Source of the DNA: Gammaproteobacteria bacterium
GTDB lineage: Bacteria > Pseudomonadota > Gammaproteobacteria > CAJXQU01
Reading direction: 5' to 3'
Assembly: GCA_045110495.1 (NCBI GenBank)
Contig: JBGCGE010000010.1
Span: forward strand, 2,392-66,391
DNA: 64,000 bases
Both the position numbers and the translations under genes were made by a program. Below the pieces are notes generated by a model. The model saw only the letters and a list, made by a program, of their open reading frames with translations, was not told the origin of the DNA and made no database searches. This document shows, piece after piece, positions 31,713-50,254 of this stretch (the first letter of the stretch is position 1; every line of letters begins with the position of its first letter).

Positions 31713-31731
31713 TTTGATAGTCAACAGTTTA

Positions 31732-31759
31732 TCGACTATTTGCGAAAGCTTATAGTCGA
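31732..31759. terminator. Hairpin between convergent genes
   Basis: TCGACTAT...ATAGTCGA inverted repeat. Confidence 0.45.
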
Positions 31760-31791
31760 GAAACATTTCTGAATGATATTTTATTTCAGGC

Positions 31792-32916: not shown

Positions 32917-32964
32917 AGACGTGATGATTAGATCTTTTCATTACAGAAAATTTATTTATTGTTT

Positions 32965-34095
32965 TTAGCCAAACGAATTTGTTTCTCGATGCCAATTTAT
33001 TATATGAGAACCAGTGATATAGGTTGCGTTAATACTGGCTTGTTTTTGTAACTCTAAAGTGTCAGTTGCAATCAGTCCTAAGCTTGCCTGTGAGCCATAA
33101 GAGACGATGAAATATTTTCCATCAGTTGTAGCTGTGATCCCTCGAGGTCTTGGCAAGTTGATGTGCTTTTTAAACTGATTATTTTTCGTATCCCAAAAAC
33201 TAACTATGTCACCTTTTGGTGTTGTAACTGCAAAAGTTTTAGATGTTTCGTGGATCGCTGCACTTAATGTTTCACCTACGTAGCGATTTTTGATCTCTTC
33301 TGGAGCTTGCAGATTAATTATTTCACTTCCCATTTTTCGAAAGCTAACGCCACCAAGATCTGATCCAGGAAGTCCAGAGCGAGGAGCAGAAACTACGCCA
33401 AGATCCTGATTTTTTGAAAGGACTAAATGACCGGCATTAATACGTTGATCTGGCAGTTCTATTTTTTCAATTAACATGCCGCTTTCGACATCAACATAAC
33501 AGACGGAAGGTGAGTCAGTACTGTCTAATGTTCCGCCGCCATTTGTGATGGCTAATAATTTACCGTTATTAAAAAGATGACAGTCGTGAGGACTTTTACC
33601 ATAACTCGGAATTTCGCCAAGAATGTCTAATGATTTTGTATCTCTGATTGAAATTATTCCATCGTGATTATTCAGGTATGATTCCACAGCAAACAATAGT
33701 GATCCATCTTTAGAATAAGATCCATGTCCATAAAAATGACAGCCATTTGTGGGACTCATATAGCGAATGACTTGCTTAGTTTTTATATTTACTTCGCAAG
33801 CACCCGAACCTTTTTTTTGAAAAAGGAATAAGGTATTTTTGGATCGAGGATTAATACTTATACCATGCGCAAAAAAGTTTACCGAAATTTGTTCTGCAAC
33901 TGACTTTTTGAAATCATATAACGCCAAAACATACTTAGTTTTTTTCGTTTTAAGATCAATATACTGGCCACCACCTAAAATTAAATCAGTGCTTTTAGGG
34001 CGGCTTCCCGAAGAACATGACGAACCGAGATAAGCCAACGAAAGAAAAGATGTTTTGCTTAAATTTTTTAAAAATTCTCTTCTGTTAAATGGCAT
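32965..34095 (-). CDS. DUF1513-family Tat-exported beta-propeller (lipo)protein
   Basis: RREFLK Tat motif, FYGHG..S.DG..L, G..PH, A.TNGG. Confidence 0.8.
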   Translation of the reverse strand: MPFNRREFLKNLSKTSFLSLAYLGSSCSSGSRPKSTDLILGGGQYIDLKTKKTKYVLALYDFKKSVAEQISVNFFAHGISINPRSKNTLFLFQKKGSGACEVNIKTKQVIRYMSPTNGCHFYGHGSYSKDGSLLFAVESYLNNHDGIISIRDTKSLDILGEIPSYGKSPHDCHLFNNGKLLAITNGGGTLDSTDSPSVCYVDVESGMLIEKIELPDQRINAGHLVLSKNQDLGVVSAPRSGLPGSDLGGVSFRKMGSEIINLQAPEEIKNRYVGETLSAAIHETSKTFAVTTPKGDIVSFWDTKNNQFKKHINLPRPRGITATTDGKYFIVSYGSQASLGLIATDTLELQKQASINATYITGSHIINWHRETNSFG

Positions 34096-34133
34096 GATAG
34101 TTTATGAAACTTTTGAAATTTATTTTTAAATAT

Positions 34134-34565
34134 TTAGATTTTTTGTTTCTTCCAGATCTCAGTTCGTCCAAATAATGAGAAACCAATATAACCTCTAATC
34201 TCAAGAGTGTTGCTATCAGTAAGTTTCATTTTGCAATTATACTTTTTGCCATTATTTGGATCGTAAATCCAACCATCGAGCCAGTAATTTGGATGTTGAT
34301 AAGTAAAGTCACCCAGCACAACAACGTTTAATAATGAGCGGGTTTTTAAAGTTGGATCTGGGTTGTTGACATCCAACCTGTCTTTACCGTCAGTACTGCC
34401 AACAATTGCACCGCGGTAGAGGTTTTGTGTTTTAGTAATTTCTATCAGACCATCACCAGCTTGATTTACCCAGACACCGAGGATATCTGCCTCTGTTACA
34501 GCGCGAGCGGCGCTCATTGTGAGCTGGCCCAGGATGATGAGTGAAATATAAATTAGCCGCTTCAT
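34134..34565 (-). CDS. DUF2147 secreted protein
   Basis: Signal peptide, D.NNPD, G.IYDP.NGK.Y, L.IRGYIG...FGRT..W. Confidence 0.9.
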   Translation of the reverse strand: MKRLIYISLIILGQLTMSAARAVTEADILGVWVNQAGDGLIEITKTQNLYRGAIVGSTDGKDRLDVNNPDPTLKTRSLLNVVVLGDFTYQHPNYWLDGWIYDPNNGKKYNCKMKLTDSNTLEIRGYIGFSLFGRTEIWKKQKI

Positions 34566-34620
34566 TTATTATGCTCTCTGATTTTTTGTTTAAGGCCAAT
34601 GGAAATATGCCTGGTTTGTT

Positions 34621-34643
34621 ATCACAGATAAAAAATCTGTGAT
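34621..34643. promoter_or_regulatory. Perfect palindrome upstream of the DUF2147 gene (candidate operator)
   Basis: ATCACAGAT-AAAAA-ATCTGTGAT. Confidence 0.4.
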
Positions 34644-34787
34644 GTTTGTACTTGGAATCATAACTTACATAATGTCTCGAACATATAGTTCAATACATTT
34701 ATCCATTTTAAAAACTGATCGGTATCTAAGATTATTACTAATGTGAGTGGATTACGTCTTAAAAGAGAAAATGAAAGAATCGAGCAC

Positions 34788-34823
34788 AAAAAAGCCTCAT
34801 CTGATTTATTCCAGATGAGGCTT
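34788..34823 (-). terminator. Intrinsic terminator of the PEP-CTERM-like gene
   Basis: AAGCCTCATCTG-N8-CAGATGAGGCTT, followed by a T-run on the minus strand. Confidence 0.85.
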
Positions 34824-34847
34824 AGTGTTTATTAATTAATCAGTGGT

Positions 34848-35633
34848 TTATTTGTCAGATTGTTTTTTAAATCGACGTCTTGCTACCATACCGAACAGGC
34901 CGATACTTGCTAAAGCTAAAGTGCCTGACTCTGAAACGTTAACTGGCGGTACGGGTGGTGTCAGAGGTGGGTTAGAAACCTGTGCCCTTAGGCCATTCAT
35001 TCGGCTGTCATAAGTACTCCAACCAGAATTACTATACCCAAAAGAAGCAAGTGATCCGTTTGCGTTATAGGTTGGGTCGCCATCTGTTTTTACCGCATAA
35101 AGCCATATGCCCATAGTTTCACCAAAACCCAGGCCAGTCCAATCTCCACCTGCAAAATTGTTAATCTTGCTTGCATCAATATCAAAGCTGAAGGTGGTTT
35201 GATTAGCAATAGATGTATCCGTTTCGAATTTACCACCGAAAGATTCAATGAAAGCACTGTTAGCGTAACTATTTTTACCAGCGTATTTATAAGCTGAAAT
35301 GTTGCCACTCTTTGAATCAGCGTAGAGCATGGCAAAATTACTACCAGAATTTCCACTTCCTAAAACGAGAGTCATACCGTTTGCAAGCGCACTTCCGTTA
35401 GAATTCACGGTATATTTCATCGAAAACGCATTGGTATCTGAATCAAAGCTTGTATTCACAGCTGAGATATCCCCAGCATTTTTATGTAGTACTAGTGGTG
35501 TAGTGTTTTTTGTAACAGCAGAATTTTTATCGTCATAAGTATATGTCGTGGCTTGTGCTGTTGAAGCAAGTGTAAGACCAGTTAATACAGAAACGGTAAA
35601 AATAGTTTTTGTGAAAGATTTTGAAAGATTCAT
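34848..35633 (-). CDS. Secreted Ser/Thr/Asn-rich protein with PEP-CTERM-like sorting signal
   Basis: Signal peptide (AQA), Pro-rich linker, VSESGT-hydrophobic helix-RRR. Confidence 0.8.
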   Translation of the reverse strand: MNLSKSFTKTIFTVSVLTGLTLASTAQATTYTYDDKNSAVTKNTTPLVLHKNAGDISAVNTSFDSDTNAFSMKYTVNSNGSALANGMTLVLGSGNSGSNFAMLYADSKSGNISAYKYAGKNSYANSAFIESFGGKFETDTSIANQTTFSFDIDASKINNFAGGDWTGLGFGETMGIWLYAVKTDGDPTYNANGSLASFGYSNSGWSTYDSRMNGLRAQVSNPPLTPPVPPVNVSESGTLALASIGLFGMVARRRFKKQSDK

Positions 35634-35637
35634 TTTT

Positions 35638-35688
35638 TACTCCTCCTTGAGTAATGAAATGTGTATAGCTTTGTAGTGCATCCTTGCA
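35638..35688 (-). promoter_or_regulatory. Two CsrA/RsmA-type GGA-loop hairpins in the 5' leader
   Basis: Minus strand TGCA-AGGA-TGCA (35688-35677) and TACTC-AAGGAG-GAGTA (35653-35638) covering the SD. Confidence 0.55.
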
Positions 35689-35944
35689 ACAGGGTCAAAG
35701 CATAAACGAAATATTCGCTTGGTCAACTAATTGACAGTAATGCTTTGTTAAGCCTTGTCACATAAAATTAATGACGCTATTAAAAGAAAGATCAGGTTTA
35801 GTGAGCTTGTTACTTATATCGGCTTGCTTAGACCCTATCTTTACGTCAATTTTAGATGACTGGGTATCACTTTAGATAGAAAAACTGTATCGATTAGCTA
35901 TTTCGTAGCTCATTTAGGTACCACAGATAGTTCAATTTAATTTT

Positions 35945-37627
35945 CTAAGACATATATTGATCTTTATGAGCTGCTAGTTGTTGTTGAATAAGTTCACCAT
36001 CGATTTTTAATAATGTTAAAACTTGCCTGCTGATCAACATACTTGATTCAAGCATTTCGAGGAAAACATGATTTGCACCAAGAGAAAGTAGTTCCTGAAA
36101 ATTTGCATTTTCTGAGCAACGAACAATGACCGGTATATCAGGATTATTCTTACGGATTTTAGAAATGGTAGTTTTTGCATGCTCCAGCGATTTAAAAGTG
36201 AGAACAGCAAGGCGTGCCTCAGTTAAGTGACAACGCATCAGGAGGTCTATATTAGTACAATCGCCATACTGTAGATTTTTCCCTAGCTTCAGACTTTGAT
36301 TGACTTGTTCGATATTATTATCGATAGCGATGTAAGGGATCTCGTTCTGCTCGAGTAATTCGGCAATTGTCATTCCAACCCGACCAAACCCACCAATAAT
36401 GACGTGATCTGAATGATGTTTGTCACTCAGTTTAATTGTATGACCCTCCTTTTTAATGGTGAGAAATCTAAAGAATTTATCTGTTAACAGATCAGCATTG
36501 CGTATCAAAACTGGACTTAATGCCATGGTGAAAATGGCAATTAGAATAATGAATGAACTCTGATCTAATGGGATAACACCATTTAAATAAGCTAGTGACA
36601 TTAGCGCTAGACAAAACTCACCAGCTTGCGCTAACGTTAATCCGACTCTAATTGCATCCTCATCACCGAATCCCATCGCTTTTACAACTAGCGTGACCAC
36701 GACAGTTTTGATCAAAATTAACAATAGCGTAAACAAAATGATCCGTGGCCAATATTCGATCAGCAAACCAAGATCCAGACTCATACCAATCGTGACAAAA
36801 AATAAGCCAAGTAAAATATCTTTAAAAGGGCGAATATCATTTTCTATTTGGTATTTAAATGAACCTTCTCCCAGCATCATACCGGTAACAAACCCACCCA
36901 ATGCCATAGAAAGATGAAAGCTATGTGTTAACCAGGCGGCTAATAAAACGATCACTAATGTACTGAGAACAAAAATTTCTTCTGATTTACTCAAGGCAAC
37001 TTCTTTGTAAATCAGCGGCAATACCCATTTGCCTAAAACCATCAAAATACTGAACAAGACAACCCCACGCAAAATGGCGGAAGCTAACTCCATGGCCAAT
37101 GAGTTTTCACCTTGGTTTGCAAGCACAGGAACCATGATCAAAAAGATTACCGCTACCAGGTCCTGAAATAACAGAACGCCTATAGCGAGTTTACCGTGTT
37201 GATTGTGGAGCTGGTGGGTATTTACTAACTCTCTGGTCACAATTGCCGTTGAAGAAAGTGCAAGAGCTCCAGCAATAAGAACCGCAGAAGAAGGTGTACT
37301 TCCCCAAAAATAGACTGTTGTACCAAAAACGATTGTACAGGCTAATACCTGGACGCCACCGACACCAAAAACCAGAAACTTTAGAGACAACATTTTCGGC
37401 AGACTGAATTCCAGACCCAGCGAAAACAATAAAAAAACAACACCGAACTCAGCGATCAAAGAAAAGCTTTCAGGTGTAGAGACAAAATTAAATGCTTGAG
37501 GCCCAATAGCTGCGCCAACCGCCATATAGGCAATAATCGTCGACATTTTTAGCCGTTGGAAAAAAATTGCAGCCAGCAGTGAAAATGTCATTATGACAAT
37601 GAGTTGTTGGAAAAAACCTTCAGTCAT
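35945..37627 (-). CDS. CPA2/Kef-type cation:proton antiporter with TrkA-N domain
   Basis: AEFGVVFLLFSLGLE, LSSTAIV, LLFQD, GFGRVG. Confidence 0.92.
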   Translation of the reverse strand: MTEGFFQQLIVIMTFSLLAAIFFQRLKMSTIIAYMAVGAAIGPQAFNFVSTPESFSLIAEFGVVFLLFSLGLEFSLPKMLSLKFLVFGVGGVQVLACTIVFGTTVYFWGSTPSSAVLIAGALALSSTAIVTRELVNTHQLHNQHGKLAIGVLLFQDLVAVIFLIMVPVLANQGENSLAMELASAILRGVVLFSILMVLGKWVLPLIYKEVALSKSEEIFVLSTLVIVLLAAWLTHSFHLSMALGGFVTGMMLGEGSFKYQIENDIRPFKDILLGLFFVTIGMSLDLGLLIEYWPRIILFTLLLILIKTVVVTLVVKAMGFGDEDAIRVGLTLAQAGEFCLALMSLAYLNGVIPLDQSSFIILIAIFTMALSPVLIRNADLLTDKFFRFLTIKKEGHTIKLSDKHHSDHVIIGGFGRVGMTIAELLEQNEIPYIAIDNNIEQVNQSLKLGKNLQYGDCTNIDLLMRCHLTEARLAVLTFKSLEHAKTTISKIRKNNPDIPVIVRCSENANFQELLSLGANHVFLEMLESSMLISRQVLTLLKIDGELIQQQLAAHKDQYMS

Positions 37628-37771
37628 AAGTTTTCAAATTCCATAATCTTGGAATCAAATTTGTAGTCCTAGTCTGTTCTCATGAAGTGCCAAGCCTACC
37701 TGAAAAGATCATTGTATAAATGCAAATTGAATGTACTTAAGAATAAGGATAGCGCCTCAGATATTACCCCT

Positions 37772-38392
37772 TTATTTAAGCCATTCCAAAGCAAGCCCCG
37801 GTGTATCCTTCAAGTTATGTGGCGACTGTTTATTCTGCATAAACTGAATCCATTGCTGCCAGAGTTTCGCGATCGAAATACTTTTCGATAGTCTTTCAGT
37901 TAAGATAATCTCATCACCCGCTTGAACTATCCCTTCTTGAACGACTCGATAATACCAACCAGTAATGTGATGTTGCATGAGAAGGTTAACCAAATGACCA
38001 TTGCCATATTTGTGATTGACTTTCCAACATGGGCGTCGGGGTTGAGAGACCTGGATGATCGCGGAACCAACAGAAAAAGTATCACCAATATGAACATTCT
38101 TTTCTGAAAAATTCTCGGACGAAAAATTTTCACCAATCGTACCCGGTAGAAACTTCTCGGCTAGATGTGGGAGAGCTTCCTTAAGTAGTTCATAATTTTC
38201 CACAGCGTAATGATGTACTGCTTTATCCAGGCCACCATGAACTTGTTGATCAGCCTGAAAGTCACCTTCCAAACCCAGATCTGTTAATCGTATTGGATCC
38301 GATACCGGAGTTTTGAAAATACCAGTGGGTACATCGTCTGGCCCTATGACATTTGTTTCTGCGATGAGAATTTTATTGATGATGGATTGCAT
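37772..38392 (-). CDS. MOSC domain protein (YiiM-like)
   Basis: GD.QAD...HGG.DKA, GENF, SQPR.PCWK, TGWYYRV. Confidence 0.9.
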   Translation of the reverse strand: MQSIINKILIAETNVIGPDDVPTGIFKTPVSDPIRLTDLGLEGDFQADQQVHGGLDKAVHHYAVENYELLKEALPHLAEKFLPGTIGENFSSENFSEKNVHIGDTFSVGSAIIQVSQPRRPCWKVNHKYGNGHLVNLLMQHHITGWYYRVVQEGIVQAGDEIILTERLSKSISIAKLWQQWIQFMQNKQSPHNLKDTPGLALEWLK

Positions 38393-38512
38393 TATCTGAT
38401 CCAGATATAAAGATATGTAATATTGTAACTAACCCTTTAAGCTAAAGATATTACAGGTAAAAAGATCAGTAATGAATCAAATAGATGCACTGCAAAATTA
38501 CATAAAGTAGAG

Positions 38513-39028
38513 TCAATTTTTTACAGCTGTAATTTGAGGATTCCCCAAAAAAATGTGAGGGCATTTAGTGGTTACTAACTTTACTTTTTGAATATCTATT
38601 GTAATTTGACCCAGTTTGGTTAATGCATTCAAGCCGATCAAATTACGTGTAGCTCCATTCACGACAGCGATTTCAACTGGACCCACATCACATCCATTTG
38701 CTAAGACGAGAGAAGGAAGAATATAAGTCGGAATTGTTTTCATACTGCCGCTAGCCATTCTCGCCATAATTTTACCATTAGAAATTGGCTTCTGAAATTT
38801 ACTAATTTGTTTGAAAAGTTTTTTCCCTATCATCACCATCGAAGCTCCTGTATCGAATAGAAATTCTGCTTCGAGAGAAGGTGTTATGTTTGCAGAAAGA
38901 GTGTACGTGCCAGACGAAGTCGCATGCAACTCAACATCATATTGGAGTGTTGGCTCTGCAAAAACATTACTTGCTAATAATAGCATTAGTAAAGTGGTGA
39001 GTATTTGTTTCAGTATGGTAATTTTCAT
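38513..39028 (-). CDS. Secreted retropepsin-like (clan AA) aspartyl protease
   Basis: Signal peptide (VFA), FLFDTGAS, LIGLNAL. Confidence 0.88.
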   Translation of the reverse strand: MKITILKQILTTLLMLLLASNVFAEPTLQYDVELHATSSGTYTLSANITPSLEAEFLFDTGASMVMIGKKLFKQISKFQKPISNGKIMARMASGSMKTIPTYILPSLVLANGCDVGPVEIAVVNGATRNLIGLNALTKLGQITIDIQKVKLVTTKCPHIFLGNPQITAVKN

Positions 39029-39058
39029 AGTAGCTGATGAGTAATTTACAGTGAACAA

Positions 39059-39074
39059 TGCAGTTATCAGGCCA
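39059..39074 (-). promoter_or_regulatory. sigma54 (-24/-12) promoter facing the protease gene
   Basis: Minus strand TGGCCTGATAACTGCA (GG-N10-GC). Confidence 0.65.
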
Positions 39075-39137
39075 ACTAACAGGTGCGATAAATATCGTTA
39101 TAAAACAATAGCATATAAATTATTATCTTGGATTGCA

Positions 39138-39189
39138 CGCACTCTAATAGTGCATTGTATTTAATAACGCACTAATGAAGTGCGTTATT
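39138..39189. promoter_or_regulatory. Tandem NtrC-type enhancer sites
   Basis: Two GCAC-N7-GTGC sites (39139-39153, 39169-39183), 30 bp apart; the second lies within an 11-bp perfect palindrome. Confidence 0.7.
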
Positions 39190-39258
39190 GATTGAAAATT
39201 AGAATGTTTTTGGTATTATTTAATCTACAGATAATTAAAACTAATCAGGAGAGGAATA

Positions 39259-39609
39259 ATGAAAATTATAAAAGTGTTCGTTGCAATTCTCAGTCTGGGT
39301 TATTTTATCCCAGCGAGTGCGGATAATAATCAGGAAATGACTCGCGTATGGCAAACAGATATTTCTGGCAAGCCACCATATAAGCGCAAGATGGTACAAG
39401 TCCCTGTCGTGGATTTAGCTAGCTTTGAAACAAAGAAAACCAAGGCGGTCAATAGTGCAGATTTTAGCGGAAAACCTCCGTACAAACGCAACAAGGAAAC
39501 AGTTCGTATAGTCGATCTGGCTCAATTTGAAGCGATAAACGAGAAAGTTGAATCTGCCACCAGCAAGAAAAAATTTGTTCCAGCACCGCGGCGGATGAAA
39601 CAAAGGTAA
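39259..39609 (+). CDS. Small secreted protein with a duplicated D.SGKPPYKR motif
   Basis: Signal peptide (ASA), GGAGAGG RBS, two ~31-aa repeats. Confidence 0.8.
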   Translation: MKIIKVFVAILSLGYFIPASADNNQEMTRVWQTDISGKPPYKRKMVQVPVVDLASFETKKTKAVNSADFSGKPPYKRNKETVRIVDLAQFEAINEKVESATSKKKFVPAPRRMKQR

Positions 39610-39627
39610 CTTTTTTTGAAAAAGGTG

Positions 39628-39674
39628 ATGGGGTCAGGTGCAATAACGCATTAGAGATAAGCACCTGATCCCAT
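39628..39674. repeat. GGGGTCAG-type inverted repeat (hairpin)
   Basis: ATGGGGTCAGGTGC-N19-GCACCTGATCCCAT, 13/14 complementary. Confidence 0.7.
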
Positions 39675-39708
39675 ACAGAACGTACGGGGGGGGGTATTCG
39701 GGTTTTTT

Positions 39709-40842
39709 TTAACCACCTAACACCGATAGTAATATACCAGCAGCAACAGCAGACCCAATGACACCGGCCAAATTTGGCCCAATTGCATGCATCAATAAGA
39801 AGTTATGTGGATTAGCTTCAAGTCCTACTTTATTAGCAACACGGGCAGCCATTGGTACAGCTGAAACACCTGCGGCTCCAATCAAAGGATTAATTGGGTT
39901 TTTAGAAAGTTTGTTCAGCAATTTAGCCATTAACACGCCGGTTGCTGTGCCTATACAAAATGCCACTGCGCCAAGTGCTAAAATGCCGAGTGTCTCAACA
40001 TTCAAAAATTTGTCAGCTGACATTTTTGAACCAACCGCTAAGCCCAAGAAAATCGTAACGATATTCATGAGTTCGTTTTGCGCCGCGTTGCTTAAACGTT
40101 CAACTACACCACTGACTTTAAGAATGTTACCAAAGCACAGCATACCGATGAGTGGCAATGATGCTGGGATGAACAATGCGGTGACGGCCAATACAATAAA
40201 TGGAAACAATAATTGTTCAAGCTTGCTGACTTCGCGCAATTGCTCCATTTTAATTTCACGCTCTTTTTGGGTAGTTAGGGCGCGCATGATTGGTGGTTGA
40301 ATGATCGGCACAAGTGCCATATATGAATATGCGGCTACTGCGATGGCGCCGAGCAACTCGGGTGCTAGTCGACTAGCAAGAAAAATAGCAGTAGGACCAT
40401 CTGCGCCACCAATAATGGCAATAGCCGCAGCGTCTTGCATAGTGAAATCAAAGCCTGGTATAGCATTGAGTGCAATTGCGCCAATCAGGGTCGCAAAAAT
40501 ACCCACTTGTGCTGCTGCACCAAGTAACAATGTTCTGGGGTTGGCTATCAGAGCACTAAAATCAGTCATTGCACCAACGCCCATGAAAATCAATAGTGGA
40601 AATACACCGGTTTCGATACCGACTTTATAAATCAGATAGAGCAAACCGTTTATTTCGGCCATGCCAGCAATGGGGATATTGCTCAAGATGGTACCAAAAC
40701 CAATGGGCAACAATAATAAGGGTTCAAACTTTCTCTTAATAGCGAGGTAAATCAGGACAACACCAACAACAACCATAATTAGTTGTTGCCATTCCCAGTT
40801 AACGAAACCGGATTGTCCCCAGAGTTTTAAAATACCATCCAT
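39709..40842 (-). CDS. oadB: Na+-translocating oxaloacetate decarboxylase beta subunit
   Basis: [39 protein letters not shown]. Confidence 0.96.
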
Positions 40843-40914
40843 ATTTATTCTCGTGTAATGTTTTCTGTTCCTTAACGTGAGTTCTGGATACTGATTAGTT
40901 TGGCGTAAAAAGGA

Positions 40915-42696
40915 TTAACCTAGTGTGATGATGGTTTGACCTGCGGTCACGACATCACCTTCTTTAACATGAATTTGAGCAACTAAACCATTACTGGAAG
41001 AACGTATTTCAGTCTCCATCTTCATGGCTTCCATAATGATGATGACATCACCTTCTTGTACTTGCTGGTTAGACTCAACGCAGACTTTAAAGATGTTGCC
41101 ACTCAAAGGTGCAGTGATCGGTACGCTTTCTCCGGTGCTAACAGTAGCCACAGCGAGTGCTTCGGAAGCTACATCAGGATTCATCACAGGTGCTCCTGCA
41201 ACACCGACCTGGATGTCTGCACCACCATCAGTGACAACAGCATTGAATTGCCTGCCATCAACTTCAACGGTGTATGTCTCTGGGCCATCTGAGATAGTGT
41301 CATTTTTCGCCACAGGTACCGGTTCAAATGCCGATGGATCGTTGCGATGTTTCAAGAACTTTAGACCAATCTGTTGAAATAATGCATAGATCAACGCATC
41401 ATCTTCAGCATTTTCGGCAAGGTCAAAATCTTCATCTTTGGATAGTTGTCGGATTTCAGCAATCATTTTGTCTATTTCAGGATCAATAGTGTCTGCTGGA
41501 CGATGTGTAATTACTTCGCCACCATCTTCTATAACGCGAGCCTGCAAGTCTTTGTCGACCGGAGCTGGTGTTGCGCCATACTCACCTAAAAGTACACCAC
41601 GAGTCTCTTTTGTGATGTTTTTATAGCGTTCACCTAAGACAACATTTAGTACTGCCTGGGTGCCGACAATTTGTGAGGTAGGTGTAACCAATGGCAAATA
41701 GCCCAAGTCTGCACGTACACGAGGCACTTCTAAAAGAACCTCAGCAAATTTATCACCAAAACCTTGTTCCTTGAGCTGGTTTTCCATATTGGTGAGCATA
41801 CCGCCAGGTACTTGAGCATTAAGAATTCGAGCATCAACACCTTTAAGTTCGCCTTCAAACTTCCAATATTTTTTGCGCACTTCGCGGAAATGATCGGCAA
41901 TCGGCTCAAACGCCATCAAGTCTAAGCCCGTATCACGTTTGCTGCCTTGCATAATCGAGACAATGGTTTCTGTAGGCGTGTGACCGTAGGTCAAACTCAT
42001 TGTTGAAATAGACGTATCAATAATATCAATGCCCGCATCAATCACTTTCATAGTGGTTGCTGTACTGAGGCCCGTTGTTGCATGTGCATGCAAGTTCAGT
42101 GGTATGTCACAAACTTTTTTGATCCCTTTAACCAATTTTTCAGCTACGTAGGGTTGTAATAATCCGGCCATGTCTTTGATGCAAATTGAATCACAACCAA
42201 GATCTTCAAGTTGTTTGGCCATATTGATCCAGCCATTTAAAGAGTGCACGTCGCTGATGGTATATGACATCGTCCCTTGTGCATGCTTGCCGTTTTCTTT
42301 GACAGCTTTGATCGCGGTTTCAAGGTTACGCACATCATTCATGGCGTCAAAGATACGAAACACGTCCATACCATTGGTTGTGGCTCGCTCAACGAATTTA
42401 TACACAACATCGTCTGCATAATGTCGATAGCCAAGTAAATTCTGACCACGCAACAACATCATTTGTGGTGTTTTCTTAAAAACACTGCTTAGTTCACGTA
42501 GGCGAACCCAGGGGTCTTCACCGAGGAAACGAATACAGGAATCAAATGTTGCGCCACCCCATGTTTCTAAAGCCCAATAGCCGATATCATCAAGTTGTTC
42601 AGCAATAGGCAGCATATCGTCTAAACGTAGACGAGTTGCAAAAAGAGATTGGTGCGCATCGCGCAAGACGACATCGTTTAGGAATAGTTTGCTCAT
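40915..42696 (-). CDS. oadA: Oxaloacetate decarboxylase alpha subunit
   Basis: LRDAHQSL, WGGATFD, KDMAG, biotinylation motif EAMKM. Confidence 0.96.
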   Translation of the reverse strand: MSKLFLNDVVLRDAHQSLFATRLRLDDMLPIAEQLDDIGYWALETWGGATFDSCIRFLGEDPWVRLRELSSVFKKTPQMMLLRGQNLLGYRHYADDVVYKFVERATTNGMDVFRIFDAMNDVRNLETAIKAVKENGKHAQGTMSYTISDVHSLNGWINMAKQLEDLGCDSICIKDMAGLLQPYVAEKLVKGIKKVCDIPLNLHAHATTGLSTATTMKVIDAGIDIIDTSISTMSLTYGHTPTETIVSIMQGSKRDTGLDLMAFEPIADHFREVRKKYWKFEGELKGVDARILNAQVPGGMLTNMENQLKEQGFGDKFAEVLLEVPRVRADLGYLPLVTPTSQIVGTQAVLNVVLGERYKNITKETRGVLLGEYGATPAPVDKDLQARVIEDGGEVITHRPADTIDPEIDKMIAEIRQLSKDEDFDLAENAEDDALIYALFQQIGLKFLKHRNDPSAFEPVPVAKNDTISDGPETYTVEVDGRQFNAVVTDGGADIQVGVAGAPVMNPDVASEALAVATVSTGESVPITAPLSGNIFKVCVESNQQVQEGDVIIIMEAMKMETEIRSSSNGLVAQIHVKEGDVVTAGQTIITLG

Positions 42697-42774
42697 GATA
42701 ATTTAACGGTTTTATCTCGCTAGGTTTTTAACTACAACTAATGGGAGGCATGTCAGGAAATTTGCCATGATGTT

Positions 42775-43044
42775 TTAAAGGCCTTTAGCCTGTCGGTGTG
42801 CTTGCACCGCTGCAATAACAATGGACTTTTCTTGCTCAGAAATACTGGATTGACTAGCTGAGGCTTTTCTTGATGGTGCTGTAATACCGATATCTGGAAC
42901 AGCATGAACTGGATTCTTTTCAAATTTTAAACAAGCAGCCGACAAAAGACTGATACAAGTAATAAGCAATGACAACAGTAAAAATACTGTCCCCATACCC
43001 AAACCAAATAAAGTCGCAGCTTGTGTTAACTGATCTATTAGCAT
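42775..43044 (-). CDS. oadG: Oxaloacetate decarboxylase gamma subunit
   Basis: GMGTVF.LL TM helix, Pro/Ala linker, IAAVQAH; upstream of oadA. Confidence 0.88.
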   Translation of the reverse strand: MLIDQLTQAATLFGLGMGTVFLLLSLLITCISLLSAACLKFEKNPVHAVPDIGITAPSRKASASQSSISEQEKSIVIAAVQAHRQAKGL

Positions 43045-43308
43045 GTGGTTCTCGGTGATATTTGAAAAAAAATCGTATATCAGTAAATTATTATTATTTT
43101 AAAGACCAATGAAAATATGTTTATAGAAAACAGTCATTCTGACTCATTTTCATAATAGATAATACTTTTTTATGCTTCTTATTCTGTAACTTAACTTAAA
43201 TAATGAAAATAAGAGCATAACACGGATGATCTGCATCATGCACAACGACACTTGCAAGATCATTTGCTCTACTAGCAATTGAAGAGCTTTTATCTATTTA
43301 ATCTCTCT

Positions 43309-43569
43309 TCATTTGCATTCAACAATAAGCGACCTGTCCGCGGCAATAAGGAAGCCATGAGATTCATTTTTTTGATCAATAATGCTATAGCCTCGAACGC
43401 CACACATCTCACCAGCTTTTTGATAGCAATGAGCAATCGTAACAGCTGTACAATTAATGGCATAACCTGATTTTCCATTGGGAGAAGTTATAGGTGTTGT
43501 GATGGCACAGCCCGTCATAGTTACGGTCGTTAACAGACAAAAAAATACCAGTATTTTAGTTTTGATCAT
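43309..43569 (-). CDS. Small Cys-rich lipoprotein
   Basis: Lipobox MTGC; P.GK.GYAINC...CYQKAGEMC. Confidence 0.75.
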   Translation of the reverse strand: MIKTKILVFFCLLTTVTMTGCAITTPITSPNGKSGYAINCTAVTIAHCYQKAGEMCGVRGYSIIDQKNESHGFLIAADRSLIVECK

Positions 43570-43724
43570 AAGCCTTAACCTGCTTTTAGAAAATGTGTAT
43601 TTATTGTTTAGAAAATTTTAAAAGAGAAAATTTATGATTATTGTCTTTCAGCCATTAGTTATTTATATTTAAAATTCATAAATATTTGTAACTGCTGAAC
43701 CTCTTTTTTTATTACCAACACTAG

Positions 43725-44366
43725 TCAACCAATGGTGTTCTTTTTTTGCTTACCAACACACCATTCACCGAAAATAATGTTAATTATCCAGGCTGCTGTC
43801 ATTAGAATATCCCGCGTTACTCCACTTGGTTCTCCAACAGTTAACAACCATGGAATTACGATCAATACTTGCGTTCCAGCTCCCTGACCTAAAGCATAAG
43901 CACGAATCATCCATGCTCGATGTTGTGCAATTCTCATATCTAAAACTGTGGCTAATCCAAGTAAGATGTAAGCCGTCATTAAGGAGCCAACAAAAATACG
44001 AATAAAATAAAGATGGTCGCCCTGTAGATGCTCAGGAAAGTGATAATAGTGAGTCATCCATAAACCTGAAATTGCCGATACAATACCTGCAATAACCAGT
44101 AAACGACCCATTACCCGATGCCATTGAGGAAAGTTTTTTCTTATACTCGAGAGAAATTGAAAAGCACCCAAAAAGCAAAAAATGATAGAGCTAATAATGT
44201 GAAATATTGCGGGTATTGGTAAAAATTTTATTCTGGGATTTTCAGGCAAAAATTCTAAACTAGTGTTGAGATCTATCAACCGAAACACTCCTCCAATACA
44301 AGGCACAAAGCTTAATAAAAGCAACCCAATTAAGAGATACCATTCTGACTTTTTCAGGAATAACAT
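43725..44366 (-). CDS. DUF2306 membrane protein
   Basis: H.....LGAFQF, HR.MGR, HRAWMIRAYA. Confidence 0.85.
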   Translation of the reverse strand: MLFLKKSEWYLLIGLLLLSFVPCIGGVFRLIDLNTSLEFLPENPRIKFLPIPAIFHIISSIIFCFLGAFQFLSSIRKNFPQWHRVMGRLLVIAGIVSAISGLWMTHYYHFPEHLQGDHLYFIRIFVGSLMTAYILLGLATVLDMRIAQHRAWMIRAYALGQGAGTQVLIVIPWLLTVGEPSGVTRDILMTAAWIINIIFGEWCVGKQKKNTIG

Positions 44367-44472
44367 GCCGAATTCGATCCAATTATTTTTGATCTGATCA
44401 TTATCTTTCTACACCTGTTAGTTGCTTCTTGAAGGATTAAAAAAATATCAACGTAGATACTTTTTTACTTTC

Positions 44473-44516
44473 TTGACACCAGTATATTGAGACGCATAGG
44501 ATGTTCAATAACATCC
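44473..44516 (+). promoter_or_regulatory. sigma70 promoter overlapped by a palindromic operator upstream of the tetR gene
   Basis: TTGACA-N18-TAGGAT; GGATGTT-CAAT-AACATCC at 44499-44516. Confidence 0.65.
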
Positions 44517-44540
44517 AACTAAAACAGGAATATTAAGTGA

Positions 44541-45095
44541 ATGAGATATCCGCCAAATCAAAAAAGTGACTCTCGAAAAAAAATAATTAAGGCCGCAAGA
44601 TCAGTTTTTGCCAATGTAGGCTTTGATAAAGGAACCATCGATCAAATCATGTCAGAAGCAGGTATGACACGTGGTGGATTCAATAAACACTTTAGTAATA
44701 AAACAGAGCTACTAATTGAAGTTGTTCGTGAAGGACAAGTGGATTTACCAGAAGATATTTCGTGCCATGTTGGGGATATTCTTCGTCGTTATCTTGATGA
44801 TACACATATCGAAGACAAGGCCAACGCATGTCCACTTTTCACATTTCCAAATGACGTTGCACACCATGGAGACGATGTAAAAACAGCATATGAAGATGTG
44901 GCGAAATCTATTGTCGATGTCCTGACTCTAGCTCAGCCAGAAAAGAATAAAGAACTCGCAATGGCTTTGATGGCAATGTGCGTGGGTTGTATGGTCGTTC
45001 TGAATAGCTGTGCTGACGCCAATTTCAAACAGTCATTACGTAAAGCGACGTTAATGCAAATTTCGGAACTGACAGGAATTAAACTTTCCATGTGA
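44541..45095 (+). CDS. TetR/AcrR family regulator
   Basis: II.AA...F...GF...TI..IM.EAGMTRGGF..HF..K. Confidence 0.93.
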   Translation: MRYPPNQKSDSRKKIIKAARSVFANVGFDKGTIDQIMSEAGMTRGGFNKHFSNKTELLIEVVREGQVDLPEDISCHVGDILRRYLDDTHIEDKANACPLFTFPNDVAHHGDDVKTAYEDVAKSIVDVLTLAQPEKNKELAMALMAMCVGCMVVLNSCADANFKQSLRKATLMQISELTGIKLSM

Positions 45096-45103
45096 GCTTA
45101 ATT

Positions 45104-45122
45104 AAAGGGGTCTGACCCCTTT
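45104..45122. repeat. AAAGGGGTC-T-GACCCCTTT palindrome
   Basis: Perfect 9-bp arms around a 1-nt centre. Confidence 0.8.
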
Positions 45123-45157
45123 TAAGTTCTAGTTTTCATATTGCTTTCCATTTTGAA

Positions 45158-45256
45158 ACATAACGCTTACATAAGCGGAAAATTATAGTTGGCTATAATG
45201 TTTGAGGAACGAAAAACAGCCAACTGTAATTTTTCCGTTTGATGTTCTTGTTATGT
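45158..45256 (-). mobile_element. Integron attC site (99 bp)
   Basis: Minus strand ACATAAC-aagaacatcaaacgg...ccgcttatgtaagc-GTTATGT with a long internal inverted repeat; begins right after the stop codon of the upstream gene. Confidence 0.9.
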
Positions 45257-46198
45257 TCAATTTCTATTAGGCTTAATGTACCCTGAAATTAGGTAACAAT
45301 AAACTTCAATTAAATCATCAGCTAAATCATAAGAATCATCTGCCATAAGAGGAGCATGAGGAAAGATACCAAAGCGAGATTCAGGATGAAATGACATAAT
45401 TCGACTTTCGTAATACTCACTAAAATATTTCTCGGAAGCTTCGGAACTAAACACTTTACCTATGAATTCAGCAGCATCTTTTGAACTTGGGTTCTTAATA
45501 CCAAGCTGATGTAGCCTTTTTAACACCAGTCGAAAAGACGCTTCAAGAGATATAAATGTAGTATTGATTGATTCTTCTAGAAAATTAGAGAGAGCACCAA
45601 GCATTATGCTTCTAAACAATGTTGAAACCGCACGAACCATTAAATGATCTTTGGTATCGAAAGCTTCGTACAGGTGTTTTTGTAATTTAAGGTCATACCC
45701 ACTTTCACTTAAACCGTATTCAATGTCACTTTGAACCGTTGGCAGTTCAATACCTCTCATATTCTTATATTGATTTTCAACGGTAAGTTTATTTCCTCTA
45801 AAGTTACGTGCCATTGATGGCTCTTCTAGTACTTTTATTAGAGCAGAAGCAACACATTCTAAATATTCAATATTAATAATAGAATTTCCAATATTTACTC
45901 TGTGAGAAATTGAAAATGGAAATAAACGACAATAACCAAAGTCTCGGTCAATACAGAGTAATATTGATGCAAAAAGTTTAACCTCATTCAGAGTAGCCCA
46001 CTCGACCTCTGAGTAATAGTTTTCTATTTCTAATTTCACATCATCTATAGGAGCAATTGAAAAGCAGATCTGGTTACTTATATAAAGAGCAGAATCTTCA
46101 TTGATAATACTATGACTTGGGTACATCCCCATTGGTGACATCATTCTCACAGTATGGCTAGCATTTAAATCACGATACTCTAAAAATGAAATACTCAC
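45257..46198 (-). CDS. Cassette-borne HEPN-like protein (RxxxxH); ORF is open to 46216
   Basis: FISLEAS helix followed by YESRIMSFH; GTG 46198 lies behind AAGGAG. Confidence 0.75.
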   Translation of the reverse strand: MSISFLEYRDLNASHTVRMMSPMGMYPSHSIINEDSALYISNQICFSIAPIDDVKLEIENYYSEVEWATLNEVKLFASILLCIDRDFGYCRLFPFSISHRVNIGNSIINIEYLECVASALIKVLEEPSMARNFRGNKLTVENQYKNMRGIELPTVQSDIEYGLSESGYDLKLQKHLYEAFDTKDHLMVRAVSTLFRSIMLGALSNFLEESINTTFISLEASFRLVLKRLHQLGIKNPSSKDAAEFIGKVFSSEASEKYFSEYYESRIMSFHPESRFGIFPHAPLMADDSYDLADDLIEVYCYLISGYIKPNRN

Positions 46199-46212
46199 GG
46201 ACACTCCTTTGA

Positions 46213-46272
46213 ACATAACGCCTTTAGCACCGGGCGCGCGTTAGCGCGTCCGAGTGCCTAAACTTGTTAGGC
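46213..46272 (-). mobile_element. Integron attC site (60 bp)
   Basis: Minus strand GCCTAAC-aagtttaggcactcggacgcgc..gcgcgcccggtgctaaaggc-GTTATGT; the upstream gene's TAA lies inside GCCTAAC. Confidence 0.9.
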
Positions 46273-47430
46273 TGCACTTGGTTCGGATTTAAGGCGAGTG
46301 AGTATCTCTTGATTTTTTTGATACGTATTTTTCATTGACTCAACCAGCTTGGCTTTACCTAGCCCCTCGTCACTCATGTATCTGCTGGATATACTGCCTA
46401 GAACACCGAGCCACCACGTATTTGTGAGGGCCGCAATTCCTCCACCCACCAAATAGGCGAAGTATGTTTTTCCACTACGGTCTCCAGCAGCCTTTGCTTT
46501 TTCATATAGAGTCAGACTCTCTTCGCGATATGACGTAAATGCGATGAAAGCGAGCGTAAAAACAGGAGGCGCTAAACTAAAGTCTATATCGGCCGCTGAA
46601 GCGCCAGCCTCAACCTGCTCAGCTAGTTCAATGTTGGATATTTCACCGTTTTCAATATTTTCGCTAACGCCGGACATTACAAGATGCGAATAGACTTCAT
46701 CCGTAGTAACAACATCAATAGAAGGATATTTTGCCAGCGCCTCTTGAACGTAAGCCACAGAGTCGGTTGCCTTTGCTTGTAGAAGCTGAACAATTTCTTC
46801 ATTCGGGCCTACAACCTGAATATCCCAACCAGGCTGTGTAGACAACATGGCAAGATCGGCAGTGTAGCCATCTGGCAGGTTCTCATTCAGATAATCAACG
46901 TATTTTTGCTCAAATAGCTTTCCTTTCACGCCGCTGTGGAAGCCGGCCGTGGCCTCTTCGCCATCCAGAGAAATTAGCTTCTCGAGGAATGACGAGTCTT
47001 CTGCCATCTTTGGATATGCCGCCGCATAGGCTGCTTCGATTTCTGGCGCAACCGAAGTTGCTACAAGAAGCGTAGCTAGCGACTCACCCCCTACGAAGAC
47101 TGAGTCAGCAAACTTCTTGTTCCTAAGCAACTCACGATACAGGGCCCCTTGAGCTTCTACCCGATGTTCTAAATCCGCCAGCTTCTCCTTTGAGTAAACT
47201 GACTGGATGTAAAGACCTTTAGCATGCTCTTGAACTGAATCACTACCTTCGCGAATATACTCTGTCGCAATGTTTTTAGCTCGCTCGGTATAACCAGATG
47301 CCTGTTCAGTCCAATCGTCTTTATTTTCATCGATGTGATCTTTTACCTCTTTGGCAATATCAGCTGACTTTTCACCCAAACCAGCCGATATCGCTTTGGC
47401 TTTTTCCCATGCGGACCTAAATTTACTCAT
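46267..47430 (-). CDS. Cassette-borne protein with a PD-(D/E)xK-like core and C-terminal hydrophobic helices
   Basis: KGKLFE...PGWD...LQAK; hydrophobic segments PPVFTLAFIAF and FAYLVGGGIAALTNTWWLGVLG. Confidence 0.75.
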   Translation of the reverse strand: MSKFRSAWEKAKAISAGLGEKSADIAKEVKDHIDENKDDWTEQASGYTERAKNIATEYIREGSDSVQEHAKGLYIQSVYSKEKLADLEHRVEAQGALYRELLRNKKFADSVFVGGESLATLLVATSVAPEIEAAYAAAYPKMAEDSSFLEKLISLDGEEATAGFHSGVKGKLFEQKYVDYLNENLPDGYTADLAMLSTQPGWDIQVVGPNEEIVQLLQAKATDSVAYVQEALAKYPSIDVVTTDEVYSHLVMSGVSENIENGEISNIELAEQVEAGASAADIDFSLAPPVFTLAFIAFTSYREESLTLYEKAKAAGDRSGKTYFAYLVGGGIAALTNTWWLGVLGSISSRYMSDEGLGKAKLVESMKNTYQKNQEILTRLKSEPSAA

Positions 47431-47444
47431 AACATCTCCGTGTG

Positions 47445-47506
47445 GCCTAACAGTCTGTTATACGGGAATGCTTCCCGCATAACATTATTATGAGGAACGT
47501 TTCCCT
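47445..47506 (-). mobile_element. attI-like site with no adjacent intI
   Basis: Minus strand GTATAAC-AGACT-GTTAGGC simple site, preceded by a degenerate direct repeat ending in GTTATGC. Confidence 0.65.
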
Positions 47507-47674
47507 GAAGTTAGAATTTGTGAAAGTCACGATCCTGTAACCATCTGATTTATATTACCTTTTAAATTTTCCATTATTCTTTTTCCTAAAACAAGGGAAC
47601 GATTCGTGGATAATGTAGCTTACTTTATCTGGTGCGTCAGTAGATTTTTCAACCAAACGTGACTTTGTTATATA

Positions 47675-50254
47675 TCATAACCACCCCTTCAACTCATACA
47701 ACTTCTCCAACGCTTCTTTCGGACTCAACTCATCTGGATTGAGATCATTGATCTTATCTGCAAGTTCAAGCATAGCTGTAGAAGGCAGTAGTTCAAGTTG
47801 TTCGTTTTGATCTACAGGATGAATATTAGTTTCACGACTCTCTAATTGTTTTAATCGAATACGTGCTTGTTTGATTACGTCTTTTGGAACGCCAGCGAGT
47901 TGGGCGACTTGTAATCCATAGCTGCGATTCGCGGGGCCATCTTTTACCGTGTGCATGAAAACTAATTTATCTTTGTGTTCGATCGCATCAAGTCGCACAT
48001 TGATCGCGGTAGGATGCTTTTCTGGAATTGCAGTCATTTCAAAATAATGCGTGGCGAACAATGTCCATGCACCGATATTTTCGAGTAAATGGATCGCGCT
48101 TGCCCACGCCAATGACAGCCCATCGAAGGTGCTGGTGCCGCGTCCGATTTCGTCCATTAAAACTAACGAGTTTTGTGTTGCATTATTAAGAATATTCGCT
48201 GTTTCGATCATTTCTACCATGAAGGTTGAACGGCCAGAAGCTAAATCATCGCTGGCGCCAATGCGGGTAAAAATACGATCAATATTTCCTATGCTGGCAG
48301 ATTTTGCCGGAACAAAACTACCGCAGTGTGCGAGCAAAACGATCAGCGCGATTTGTCGCATGTAGGTGGATTTTCCACCCATGTTGGGTCCGGTGATGAT
48401 CAACATTTTCCGATCTTCATTCATGATCAAATCATTTGGAATAAAACTTTCTTCTTGAATTTTTTCAACCACAGGATGACGACCGGCTTCAATATTGATC
48501 TGGTTCGTCTGACTTAGATCTGGTTGAGCGAAATCTAATGTCACCGCACGTTCGGCAAAACTTCCGAGTACATCGAGTTCTGCGATTGCCGCTCCGGTTG
48601 ATTGAAGATCTGGCGTGTGTTCGGTTAATTGATCGAGCAGATCGGCATAAAGTGCTTTTTCCAGCTTCAGAGCTTTTTCACCCGCGCTGAGAACCTTGTC
48701 TTCATATTCTTTTAATTCAGGCGTGATGAAACGTTCGGTGGCTTTGAGTGTTTGTCGACGATGATAATGAGTTGGAACGTCATTGCTTTGCAAACGGCTG
48801 ATCTCAATGTAATAGCCGTGAACACGATTGTAGCCAACTTTCAGCGTTTGTATGCCGGTGCTTTCGCGTTCGCGGATCTCAATTTGATCAAGATAGTCGC
48901 TGGCATTTTTGCTCAGTTTTCGTAGTTCATCCAACTCGGCGTGATAGCCTTCAGCGATCATTCCGCCATCACGAATTAAAGCTGGTGGCATTTCGATAAT
49001 CGCATTGGTGAGTAGAGAAAGCATGTCGGGAAATTGATTAATCTGATCAGAAAGTTGTTGCAGTCTTGGGCTATCCAGATCGGCCAGTTGTTCTTTAATA
49101 TCAGGCAACGCGCCTATCGAAGAACGAAGTTGAGCGAGATCTCGTGGCCGAGCAGATTTAAGTGCAATACGTGTGGTGATGCGTTCCATATCGCCAATGG
49201 CGCGCAGTGTTTCTTGTAGATCAGAATAATGTTGATTTTCGATCAAGGTTGCTACAGCGTGATGGCGAAATTTGATTGCTGCATGATCGCGCAAAGGCGC
49301 TTGCAACCAGCGGCATAACATACGACTGCCCATGCCGGTTACCGCAGAGTCAATCAAATGTGCAAGACTATGGCGGCGTTCGCCCGACAAGCTGTTGAGA
49401 ATTTCCAGGTTACGACGGCTAGCAGCATCAATCGTGATCGTGTCGCTCAAAGTTTCCAGTTTTAATTCGGTCAGGTGCGGCAGCGAAGTACGTTGTGTTT
49501 CACGCGTGTATTGCAAAAGACATCCGGCGGCTGAGATGGTTGAGGGTAATTGATCACAACCGTAACCTTTTAAATCCGTTACTCCGAAATGTTCTTTAAG
49601 CTGACGCGTGCTGCTATCGAGATCAAAATACCACGGCGACATAGTTGAAATCGATTTATGATTTTTTAACGCCGCTAGCAATGGCGAATCTTCACTGATC
49701 AAAATTTCAGCGGGTTGTAATCTTTCCAGTTCTGCGATCAATTCGTCGTGTTTGTTGTCTTTATTTGTGTTGCGATCAGAGTGCTGAGAAATCTCCATCA
49801 CATGAAAGCGCCCACCGCTGAGATCTAACCAGGCCAGGCCAATTTTTTGATCAAGCTCATGGATGGCTAATAGCAGATTATCCTGTCGTTCTTTTAATAA
49901 GGCTTCGTCGGTGACGGTTCCCGGCGTAAGAATGCGGGTGATTTTACGTTCGACCGGACCTTTGCTCGTTGCAGGATCTCCAACTTGATCACAAATGACA
50001 ATTGACTCACCCATGTCGACTAATTTAGCCAGATAATTTTCTGACGCATGCATCGGCATGCCCGCCATTGGAATAGGCTCACCAGCCGAGTTTCCACGTT
50101 TGGTTAATGCCAGCCCTAACAGTTCATTTGCGCGTCGTGCATCTTCAAAAAAGAATTCATAAAAATCCCCCATTTGAAAAAACAACAACTTGTCAGGATA
50201 CTCAGCTTTAAAGCCAAGATACTGCTGCATTGCTGGGGTATGTTCAGTCGCCAT
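47675..50254 (-). CDS. mutS: DNA mismatch repair protein MutS
   Basis: [36 protein letters not shown]. Confidence 0.99.

Follow-up and report, generated by a model that had tools for sequence, protein, structure and literature searches.

In a 64,000-nt stretch of a gammaproteobacterial contig (JBGCGE010000010.1; this whole stretch is hereafter the window), a single open reading frame (ORF) of 319 aa occupies positions 45257..46216 of the minus strand in the window's ORF list. An earlier note, made from the sequence alone, had proposed that it encodes a HEPN-like RNase with an unrecognized N-terminal domain, and the ORF and all of the motifs quoted there are found in the translation, namely, SPMGMYP (residues 27-33), YYSEVEW (67-73), EESINTTFISLEAS (214-227), and YYESRIMSFH (268-277). 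The longest reading frame, 319 aa, begins at ATG 46216, a codon that falls within an attC core site. Because a Shine-Dalgarno sequence, AAAGGAG, lies at 46210-46204, six bases before GTG 46198, and the database forms of the protein are 313 aa in length, the true start is probably GTG 46198, which would give a coding sequence at 45257..46198 (minus strand) and a 313-aa product; residue numbering nevertheless follows the 319-aa form throughout. Judged by its composition, the gene is foreign, with a GC content of 34.1% (24% at third codon positions) versus 46.3% in the upstream 387-aa gene and 45.2% in mutS.

The AlphaFold2 monomer model, built on a 45-sequence alignment (predicted local distance difference test [pLDDT] score, 87.4; predicted template modeling score, 0.87), shows the bipartite organization that had been read from the translation, with an alpha/beta N-terminal part (residues 1-186; 45659..46216, minus strand) and a helical C-terminal part (residues 187-319; 45260..45658, minus strand). 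The latter is a four-helix up-down bundle formed by helices H1 (191-206), H2 (210-237), H3 (266-276), and H4 (292-311), with an insert helix (245-255) between the second and third helices and a conserved loop (278-291) before the fourth. In VIA, an exhaustive structural search of 48,161 PDB chains, residues 187-314 align best to HEPN proteins of several families, including HI0074 (1jog; score of 10.3 with a root mean square deviation of 2.7 and 109 aligned positions), AMPylated HepT (8xdj; 10.2), SO_3166 (5yep; 8.9), HepT (7ae2; 8.7), Csm6 (8jbc; 8.6), and Las1 (6of2; 8.1), along with 1wwp (8.9). At least 15 of the top 31 matches are HEPN proteins, and these come from different families. A Foldseek search of the PDB with the monomer model returned no match. 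The layout agrees with the description of HEPN domains by Anantharaman et al. (2013; PMC3710099), at least in the available part of that text, in the placement of the motif, the acidic residue of helix 2, and the insert between helices 2 and 3: there, the conserved acidic residue, when present, is located in helix 2, and helices 2 and 3 are often separated by an insert. An hhalign comparison of the C-terminal profile with 20 HepT proteins, a set from which two loci of unpublished genomes were left out, gave a weak result (P = 0.0088; probability, 2%) in which R272 and H277 fall on the R and H of HepT; this is consistent with a HEPN relationship and is not proof of one. In the model, the C-terminal half is HEPN-like, as the earlier note had anticipated, and is a predicted minimal version of the fold with the motif at its canonical place.

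The proposed catalytic residues, R272 and H277, belong to the R-x4-H motif RIMSFH (45386..45403, minus strand). There are four R-x4-6-H strings in the protein, and the motif by itself is not above chance; across 114 sequences, only R272/H277 is conserved, and the other three strings are not. No substitution of R272, H277, E214, or R195 occurs in a set of 45 homologues, and among 114 members ranging down to 21% identity H277 is retained in all 114, R195 in 113, and R272 in 109, so that the R and H singled out in the earlier note are indeed conserved. In the model, R272 sits in the helix spanning 266-276 and H277 is the first residue of the ensuing loop. The residues E214-E215 at the start of helix 2 (45572..45577, minus strand) occupy the conserved acidic position of HEPN domains and belong to the predicted dimer interface; 88 members have E and 8 have D at position 214 (96/114 acidic), and 77/114 have E at position 215.

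Homodimer prediction with two copies and alignment A1 gave scores of 0.59, 0.70, and 0.74 (median, 0.70) against 0.33 for the best control and passed a mark that is also attained by 20 of 30 homodimers and 1 of 23 monomers of solved structure; at least 68% of contacts are shared between the runs, and the partner pLDDT is at least 76. The predicted interface is symmetric and is built from H1 and H2 (191-229), the motif region (275-279, from both copies), and the conserved loop (284-292). It also includes the most conserved motif of the N-terminal domain, YYSEVEW (67-73), and residues 152-157, which touch helix 2 of the partner. In the available part of the DARNA account (10.64898/2026.02.22.705581), the primary dimer is formed by helices alpha2-alpha3 and the loop after the catalytic His, i.e., by the same set of elements as the interface predicted here. 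Similarly, in the accessible text on ApeA (10.64898/2026.01.26.701840), the non-HEPN domains contact the HEPN domain of the partner, and the activating ligand binds in a pocket that lies between the HEPN part and the N-terminal part.

The N-terminal domain, folded alone as residues 1-186, is modeled with a pLDDT of 92.9 and is marked by a set of conserved residues (R24, G30, Y32, P33, Y68, S69, E70, W73, E78, Y99, P100, and Y167). Its description as unrecognized survives in all of the libraries searched: it has no match in Pfam, NCBIfam, or PADLOC, nothing was retrieved from the PDB by VIA or by Foldseek at an E value of ≤0.001 or from BFVD by Foldseek at the same threshold, and its look-alikes in the Atlas lie below the chance level. 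There is a strong possibility that the modeled domain represents a new fold relative to the structures in the PDB and BFVD.

The Pfam, NCBIfam, and PADLOC models do not match any part of the protein. A word-indexed search recovered 51 homologues, all labeled hypothetical, of which the closest, from Oceanisphaera ostreae, is 84% identical, and a profile search of 1.84 billion representatives recovered 503 at an E value of ≤1e-3, 372 at ≤1e-10, and 169 at ≤1e-30. The gene is under purifying selection, with a ratio of nonsynonymous to synonymous substitution rates of 0.133 relative to the O. ostreae copy (dN, 0.079; dS, 0.593). Its distribution is patchy: among 61 related genomes, it is present in 1, that of the window itself, and it is found in 0/6 species of the same genus. 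We found no description of the family in the literature, where the supplementary cassette lists of preprints could contain one; the family, its very compact architecture, and its unmatched N-terminal domain are new.

The HEPN gene and its own attC make up a complete cassette of the integron type. The cassette measures 1,055 bp (45164..46218, minus strand) and runs from the TT of the upstream R' site to the G of its own R' site. The attC box consensus is RYYYAAC/GTTRRRY, and in the 99-nt attC of the HEPN cassette (45158..45256, minus strand) the boxes are R'' ACATAAC (45256-45250), which directly follows the HEPN stop codon, and R' GTTATGT (45164-45158). This attC forms an imperfect hairpin whose inner (L) arms are 94% complementary, with folding energies of -22.5 kcal/mol (z = -7.0) for the bottom strand and -19.9 kcal/mol for the top strand. 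The attC of the upstream cassette is 60 nt in length (46213..46272, minus strand; -17.7 kcal/mol, z = -3.5); its R'', GCCTAAC, shares bases with the stop codon that ends the 387-aa gene, and its R', GTTATGT, supplies the start of the HEPN cassette. The first six bases (TTRRRY) complement the cassette's own R'' in the HEPN cassette (TTATGT/ACATAAC), the 387-aa cassette (TTAGGC/GCCTAAC), and the neighboring PDC-S45 cassette of O. ostreae (TTAGCC/GGCTAAC), as excision and insertion at G|TT predict. In a blastn comparison with the O. ostreae locus, only 45161-46219 matches, at 84%; identity starts exactly at GTTATGTTCAAAGGAG, and all of the sequence upstream differs. The positions at which assemblies branch, 45159 and 47448, are those of the two R' sites. 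This organization had escaped the earlier note; its word cassette holds in the strict sense used for integrons, a fact that lends weight to reading the gene as a mobile and self-contained unit. That note had also found no partner in the cassette, and the interval 46218-45164 indeed holds the HEPN ORF alone, with no further ORF of at least 40 aa on either strand.

Downstream sequence is long enough to look for an attC in 33 other homologue loci; in 6 of them (L001, L031, L039, L046, L053, and L058), an attC-like site directly follows the stop codon, and in 4 of those (L001, L039, L046, and L053) the 5' end obeys the cassette rule as well. In contigs from four public runs, a 96-nt portion of the HEPN-cassette attC (45158-45253) recurs with unrelated flanks in other metagenomes (X4, X18, and X2), and we therefore assign it, on this sequence recurrence, to a widespread attC family; the contig depth of this attC sums to about 234 in a single marine run, and a contig from a marine-sediment RNA library contains a 96-nt copy without any difference. 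An integron integrase was not found in the 98%-complete genome, in which the best match to TIGR02249 scores 83 bits against a cutoff of 265 and is Xer-like, and mutS lies directly upstream of the cassette cluster. For these two reasons, the cluster is an attC cluster without integrase (CALIN-type) and not a complete integron.

The upstream neighbor in the cluster encodes a 387-aa product (46267..47430, minus strand) that matches PDC-M72B in PADLOC (E = 5.4e-17) through its middle part, flanked by a helical N terminus and hydrophobic C-terminal segments, and occupies a cassette of its own (46219-47450). The R' GTTAGGC with which this cassette begins belongs to a 72-nt attC-like hairpin (47445..47516, minus strand) within a repeat of about 190 bp (47445-47642) that ends exactly at the start of the cassette. 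Copies of the repeat that are 85 to 96% identical are found at C40:5892-6084, C24:991-1148, and C69:9844-9872, and contigs of run X1 branch at 47448. On the other side, a GC-rich hairpin flanked at either end by T-runs (45102-45125) lies just outside the HEPN-cassette attC, between it and a convergent TetR gene, and is a probable bidirectional terminator by its sequence; an Rfam scan of 42500-48500 gave no match. In the same-genus genome G006, mutS is one gene from the homologue of the TPMT gene (29321-30019 in the window), and the 17.6 kb of the window beside mutS (about 30020-47674) accordingly looks like a variable region; it contains oxaloacetate decarboxylase genes, an Na/H exchanger, TetR, DUF2306, and the two cassettes. 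Elsewhere in the genome, the 4,936-bp contig C70 carries five strongly folding sites of about 100 nt (267-369, 1130-1232, 1779-1876, 3738-3837, and 4697-4798) of the form GYCTAAC...GATGTTAGRC, in one orientation and 0.6 to 1.9 kb apart, and looks by its sequence like a second cassette array. The genome-wide attC pattern scan was crude, most of its 83 matches being ordinary hairpins, and we relied on the sites of contig C10 and the five of C70.

The 387-aa gene was considered as a partner of the HEPN gene and rejected: it is absent beside all seven homologues from genomes, none of 10 loci of its own homologues holds the HEPN family, and the two genes differ in GC content (46.3% versus 34.1%). 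The genes that follow its homologues differ among these 10 loci and include an ankyrin-like PDC-M72A (L096), SoFic (L095), and an unknown product of about 330 aa (L094 and L100). PDC-M72A was likewise rejected as an analogue of the HEPN gene, being ankyrin-like and following the B gene in L096 only. More generally, an all-against-all comparison of 123 neighbor ORFs found no recurring neighbor beyond near-identical loci and therefore no conserved antitoxin or partner. This survey covered 26 distinct loci, comprising the window, 7 genome loci, and 18 metagenome loci; for the last of these, 27 of 38 loci retrieved with alignment A1 were processed, with the shorter ones set aside, 3 were excluded for having the homologue truncated at the edge of a contig, and 6 were excluded as duplicates (L024, L030, L035, L036, L040, and L048). 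Contexts are shared by L041 with L043 and by L056 with L057.

The gene usually resides among antiphage defense genes: a match to a PADLOC defense model lies within two ORFs in 13 of the 26 loci, a count that has no background rate and is not a statistical test. The matches are diverse, encompassing PDC-M72B in the window, PDC-S45 (L001), PDC-S06 (L002), PDC-S52 with ArdA and a pEK499_p136 HEPN gene (L004), PDC-S25, a SIR2 type (L007), BovA with TniQ (L029), a NucC-like nuclease with HNH (L032), a PD-T4-6/mad6 kinase with HEPN_AbiV (L034), PDC-S15 (L039), PDC-M68A-like genes (L041 and L047), HEAT-ARM with HEPN_Toprim_N (L043), and a type IIG restriction-modification gene (L055). Four further loci have HigBA (L037), a phosphatase toxin domain (L046), a caspase (L056), or an insertion sequence (L042).

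Among previously described proteins, the HEPN core is most like the minimal toxins of the HepT-MntA type (HI0074, 1JOG; SO_3166, 5YEP; HepT, 7AE2/8XDJ). Unlike those systems, the gene has no MNT antitoxin gene beside it, its motif reads RIMSFHPE, with HP in place of the HxY of RX4HXY, and the protein has an extra N-terminal domain of 186 residues; with no Pfam match to HepT, HEPN, or NTase_sub_bind, it is not, by sequence, a member of HepT. The comparison with ApeA drawn in the earlier note stands as an analogy. To the extent covered by the available text (10.64898/2026.01.26.701840), ApeA cleaves tRNA anticodons in abortive infection and has a conserved activating pocket in its noncatalytic N-terminal parts, and both proteins are stand-alone, with a C-terminal HEPN domain preceded by noncatalytic N-terminal parts. 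The relationship does not extend further: ApeA is about 580 aa, has a helical N-terminal part and a PafA-like Mid part followed by a split HEPN domain, and forms decamers or dodecamers, whereas the protein described here has 313 aa, an alpha/beta N-terminal domain, and a minimal HEPN domain, and the HEPN_Apea and ApeA_NTD1 models of Pfam and the ApeA model of PADLOC gave no match at an E value of ≤1. A lead to ApeA_NTD1 in the Atlas was discarded, as its feature scores (0.75 to 0.77) are at or below the chance level.

Two other single-gene HEPN immunity proteins resemble the system proposed here in their logic, as far as the accessible portions of their accounts describe it. The active site of HepS, an abortive infection protein of the Gifsy-1 prophage (PMC13043305), is occluded until the tail-tip protein J is encountered, and that of DARNA/PD-T7-3 (10.64898/2026.02.22.705581) is occluded until single-stranded DNA is presented by the single-stranded DNA-binding protein; both are tRNA anticodon nucleases. 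HepS, however, is a bare HEPN tetramer, and DARNA has an N-terminal HEPN domain with a helical C-terminal domain and forms dodecamers, such that the domain order and the sensor fold differ from those of the present family, and no sequence relationship to either was detected. A relationship to MauJ (PF17419), another lead from the Atlas, was also rejected: hmmsearch with alignment A1 against the ORFs of five MauJ loci found nothing significant, and hhalign of A1 with the alignment of MauJ-matching proteins (A3; L009-L013) gave a probability of 0.2%. An invariant R-x4-H, with the consensus RNAIAH and IDPDDP after it, occurs in these MauJ-matching proteins and raises the side issue that the methylamine-utilization protein MauJ may contain a HEPN-type domain.

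Integron cassettes, as reportedly described by Kieffer et al. and Darracq et al., store defense genes, HEPN genes included. In the parts of the sources available, such storage is documented (10.1101/2024.07.02.601719; 10.64898/2026.03.17.712381), one example being the HEPN AbiU2 cassette of Vibrio mimicus (10.64898/2026.03.17.712381), and PMC3710099 lists an "Integron cassette HEPN" family (PDB 3JRT). The present unit is comparable to these integron-borne cassettes (BRiCs, 3JRT, and AbiU2) in being a mobile, one-gene HEPN cassette with its own attC in a gammaproteobacterium. It differs from the HEPN cassettes in having no Pfam match to AbiU2 or any other HEPN family and in belonging to an array without an integrase, and 3JRT is absent from the best 50 VIA matches.

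On the basis of these observations and the above analogies, we favor, with moderate confidence, the interpretation that the protein is a self-contained, trigger-gated HEPN RNase (residues 187-319) joined to a 186-residue alpha/beta domain of undescribed fold and acting in abortive infection. Of the overall proposal in the earlier note, the conserved R and H, the HEPN-like fold of the model, the missing partner, and the unrecognized N-terminal domain have all been upheld, and its appeal to ApeA is kept only as an analogy. We infer triggering by phage from gene neighborhood and analogy only. In the mechanism that can be conceived, two protomers would form a composite R272/H277 HEPN site capable of cutting RNA, and the N-terminal domain, clamping the HEPN domain of the partner, would keep this site closed. 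A phage-derived protein, nucleic acid, or small molecule might then bind a conserved pocket of the N-terminal domain and open the site, upon which translation would be arrested and the infection aborted. Going by the analogous ApeA, HepS, DARNA, and PrrC, it would most likely be tRNA anticodon loops or mRNA that are cut, with the former as the best guess because HepS, DARNA, and ApeA, all of which keep the site occluded until a phage cue arises, cut them. The cassette form would allow the gene to move between genomes as a 1-kb unit.

Several points weigh against this interpretation. With respect to the fold, a PDB profile search gave 0 matches, Pfam matched 0/45 close and 0/44 distant members, leaving no firm sequence-profile tie to any HEPN family, the probability of the hhalign comparison is a mere 2%, and confidence in the monomer model is lowest in the motif loop (mean pLDDT of 55 and 48 for residues 271-290). 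The dimer prediction may owe part of its success to solved HEPN dimers that the model has memorized. The position following the motif R is polar in many HEPN families; here, that residue is I or V in 105/114 members. In 5 of the 114 members (P0156, P0175, P0181, P0191, and P0193; KW[IV]xxKHP), R272 is replaced by W with H277 kept, and this subgroup may be an inactivated or mechanistically altered branch. With respect to context and expression, no defense or mobile-element neighbor is present in 9 of the 26 loci (L003, L005, L006, L023, L027, L033, L038, L051, and L057), the family has no match among 72,556 plasmid and 50,697 phage records, a consensus scan of the gene strand over 45000-47700 found no sigma-70-like promoter, and the RNA runs leave the coding part uncovered, the sole RNA-library contig (X18) covering the attC only, with foreign flanks.

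We considered the alternative that the gene encodes an addiction-type toxin that stabilizes the cassettes, i.e., a HEPN RNase checked in cis by its N-terminal domain and penalizing the loss of the array. In chromosomal integrons, toxin-antitoxin cassettes penalize array loss, and the present gene lies in an integron-type array without an integrase, at least four more homologues reside in cassettes with both ends verified, and the top fold matches are toxins of the HepT type. A single stable protein with no labile antidote, however, provides no obvious means of postsegregational killing, and the cassette lacks a second ORF of at least 40 aa that might encode one. Moreover, 27 of the 33 other loci checked have no attC, and many of these are beside defense genes. 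We regard this explanation as unlikely.

An explanation that we deem improbable to much the same degree is that the protein is noncatalytic or nonimmune, functioning in nucleotide or RNA binding, in RNA processing, or as an antidefense or competition factor of mobile elements. Nucleotidyltransferases, too, use HEPN-like bundles as their domains for substrate binding, and four such structures (3c18, 2pbe, 3jyy, and 4ebj) are among the VIA matches; against such a role, no nucleotidyltransferase domain or gene is found alongside. The gene in L004 lies between the ArdA antirestriction gene and the pEK499_p136 HEPN gene, company that is typical of the leading regions of plasmids or integrative and conjugative elements. 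The loss of R272 in 5/114 members is compatible with a noncatalytic protein, but the near invariance of R272, H277, the helix-2 acid, and R195 across the 114 sequences is the pattern of a catalytic site, and the presence in 1/61 related genomes and 0/6 of the genus argues against a housekeeping function. Still less probable is a chance resemblance, in which a generic four-helix bundle would use the conserved R and H for some other end, given the at least 15 HEPN proteins of different families in the top 31 VIA matches, the independent fit of the motif position, helix-2 acid, helix 2-3 insert, and predicted dimer geometry, and the HepT comparison, which, weak as it is at 2% probability, puts R and H in register.

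Returning to the interpretation of a gated RNase, the gene is a good candidate for a new family of single-gene phage defense. The single-protein HEPN defenses, ApeA, HepS, and DARNA, are current models of how an RNase is silenced and switched on, each with a different trigger logic, and to these the present family adds a much smaller architecture of 313 aa with a minimal HEPN domain. The libraries searched contain no structural relative of its putative regulatory domain, and both the fold and the cue would therefore be new. More tentatively, and with some doubt, the protein might be the founding member of a new single-gene antiphage system in which a previously unseen sensor fold clamps a minimal HEPN dimer that a phage cue opens, and which spreads as a 1-kb cassette. 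The exact borders and the 84%-identical copy in the array of another genome provide a clean natural example of a defense candidate moving by attC recombination, and if the proposal is true, then integrons and attC clusters would traffic a compact, self-regulating RNase immunity module.

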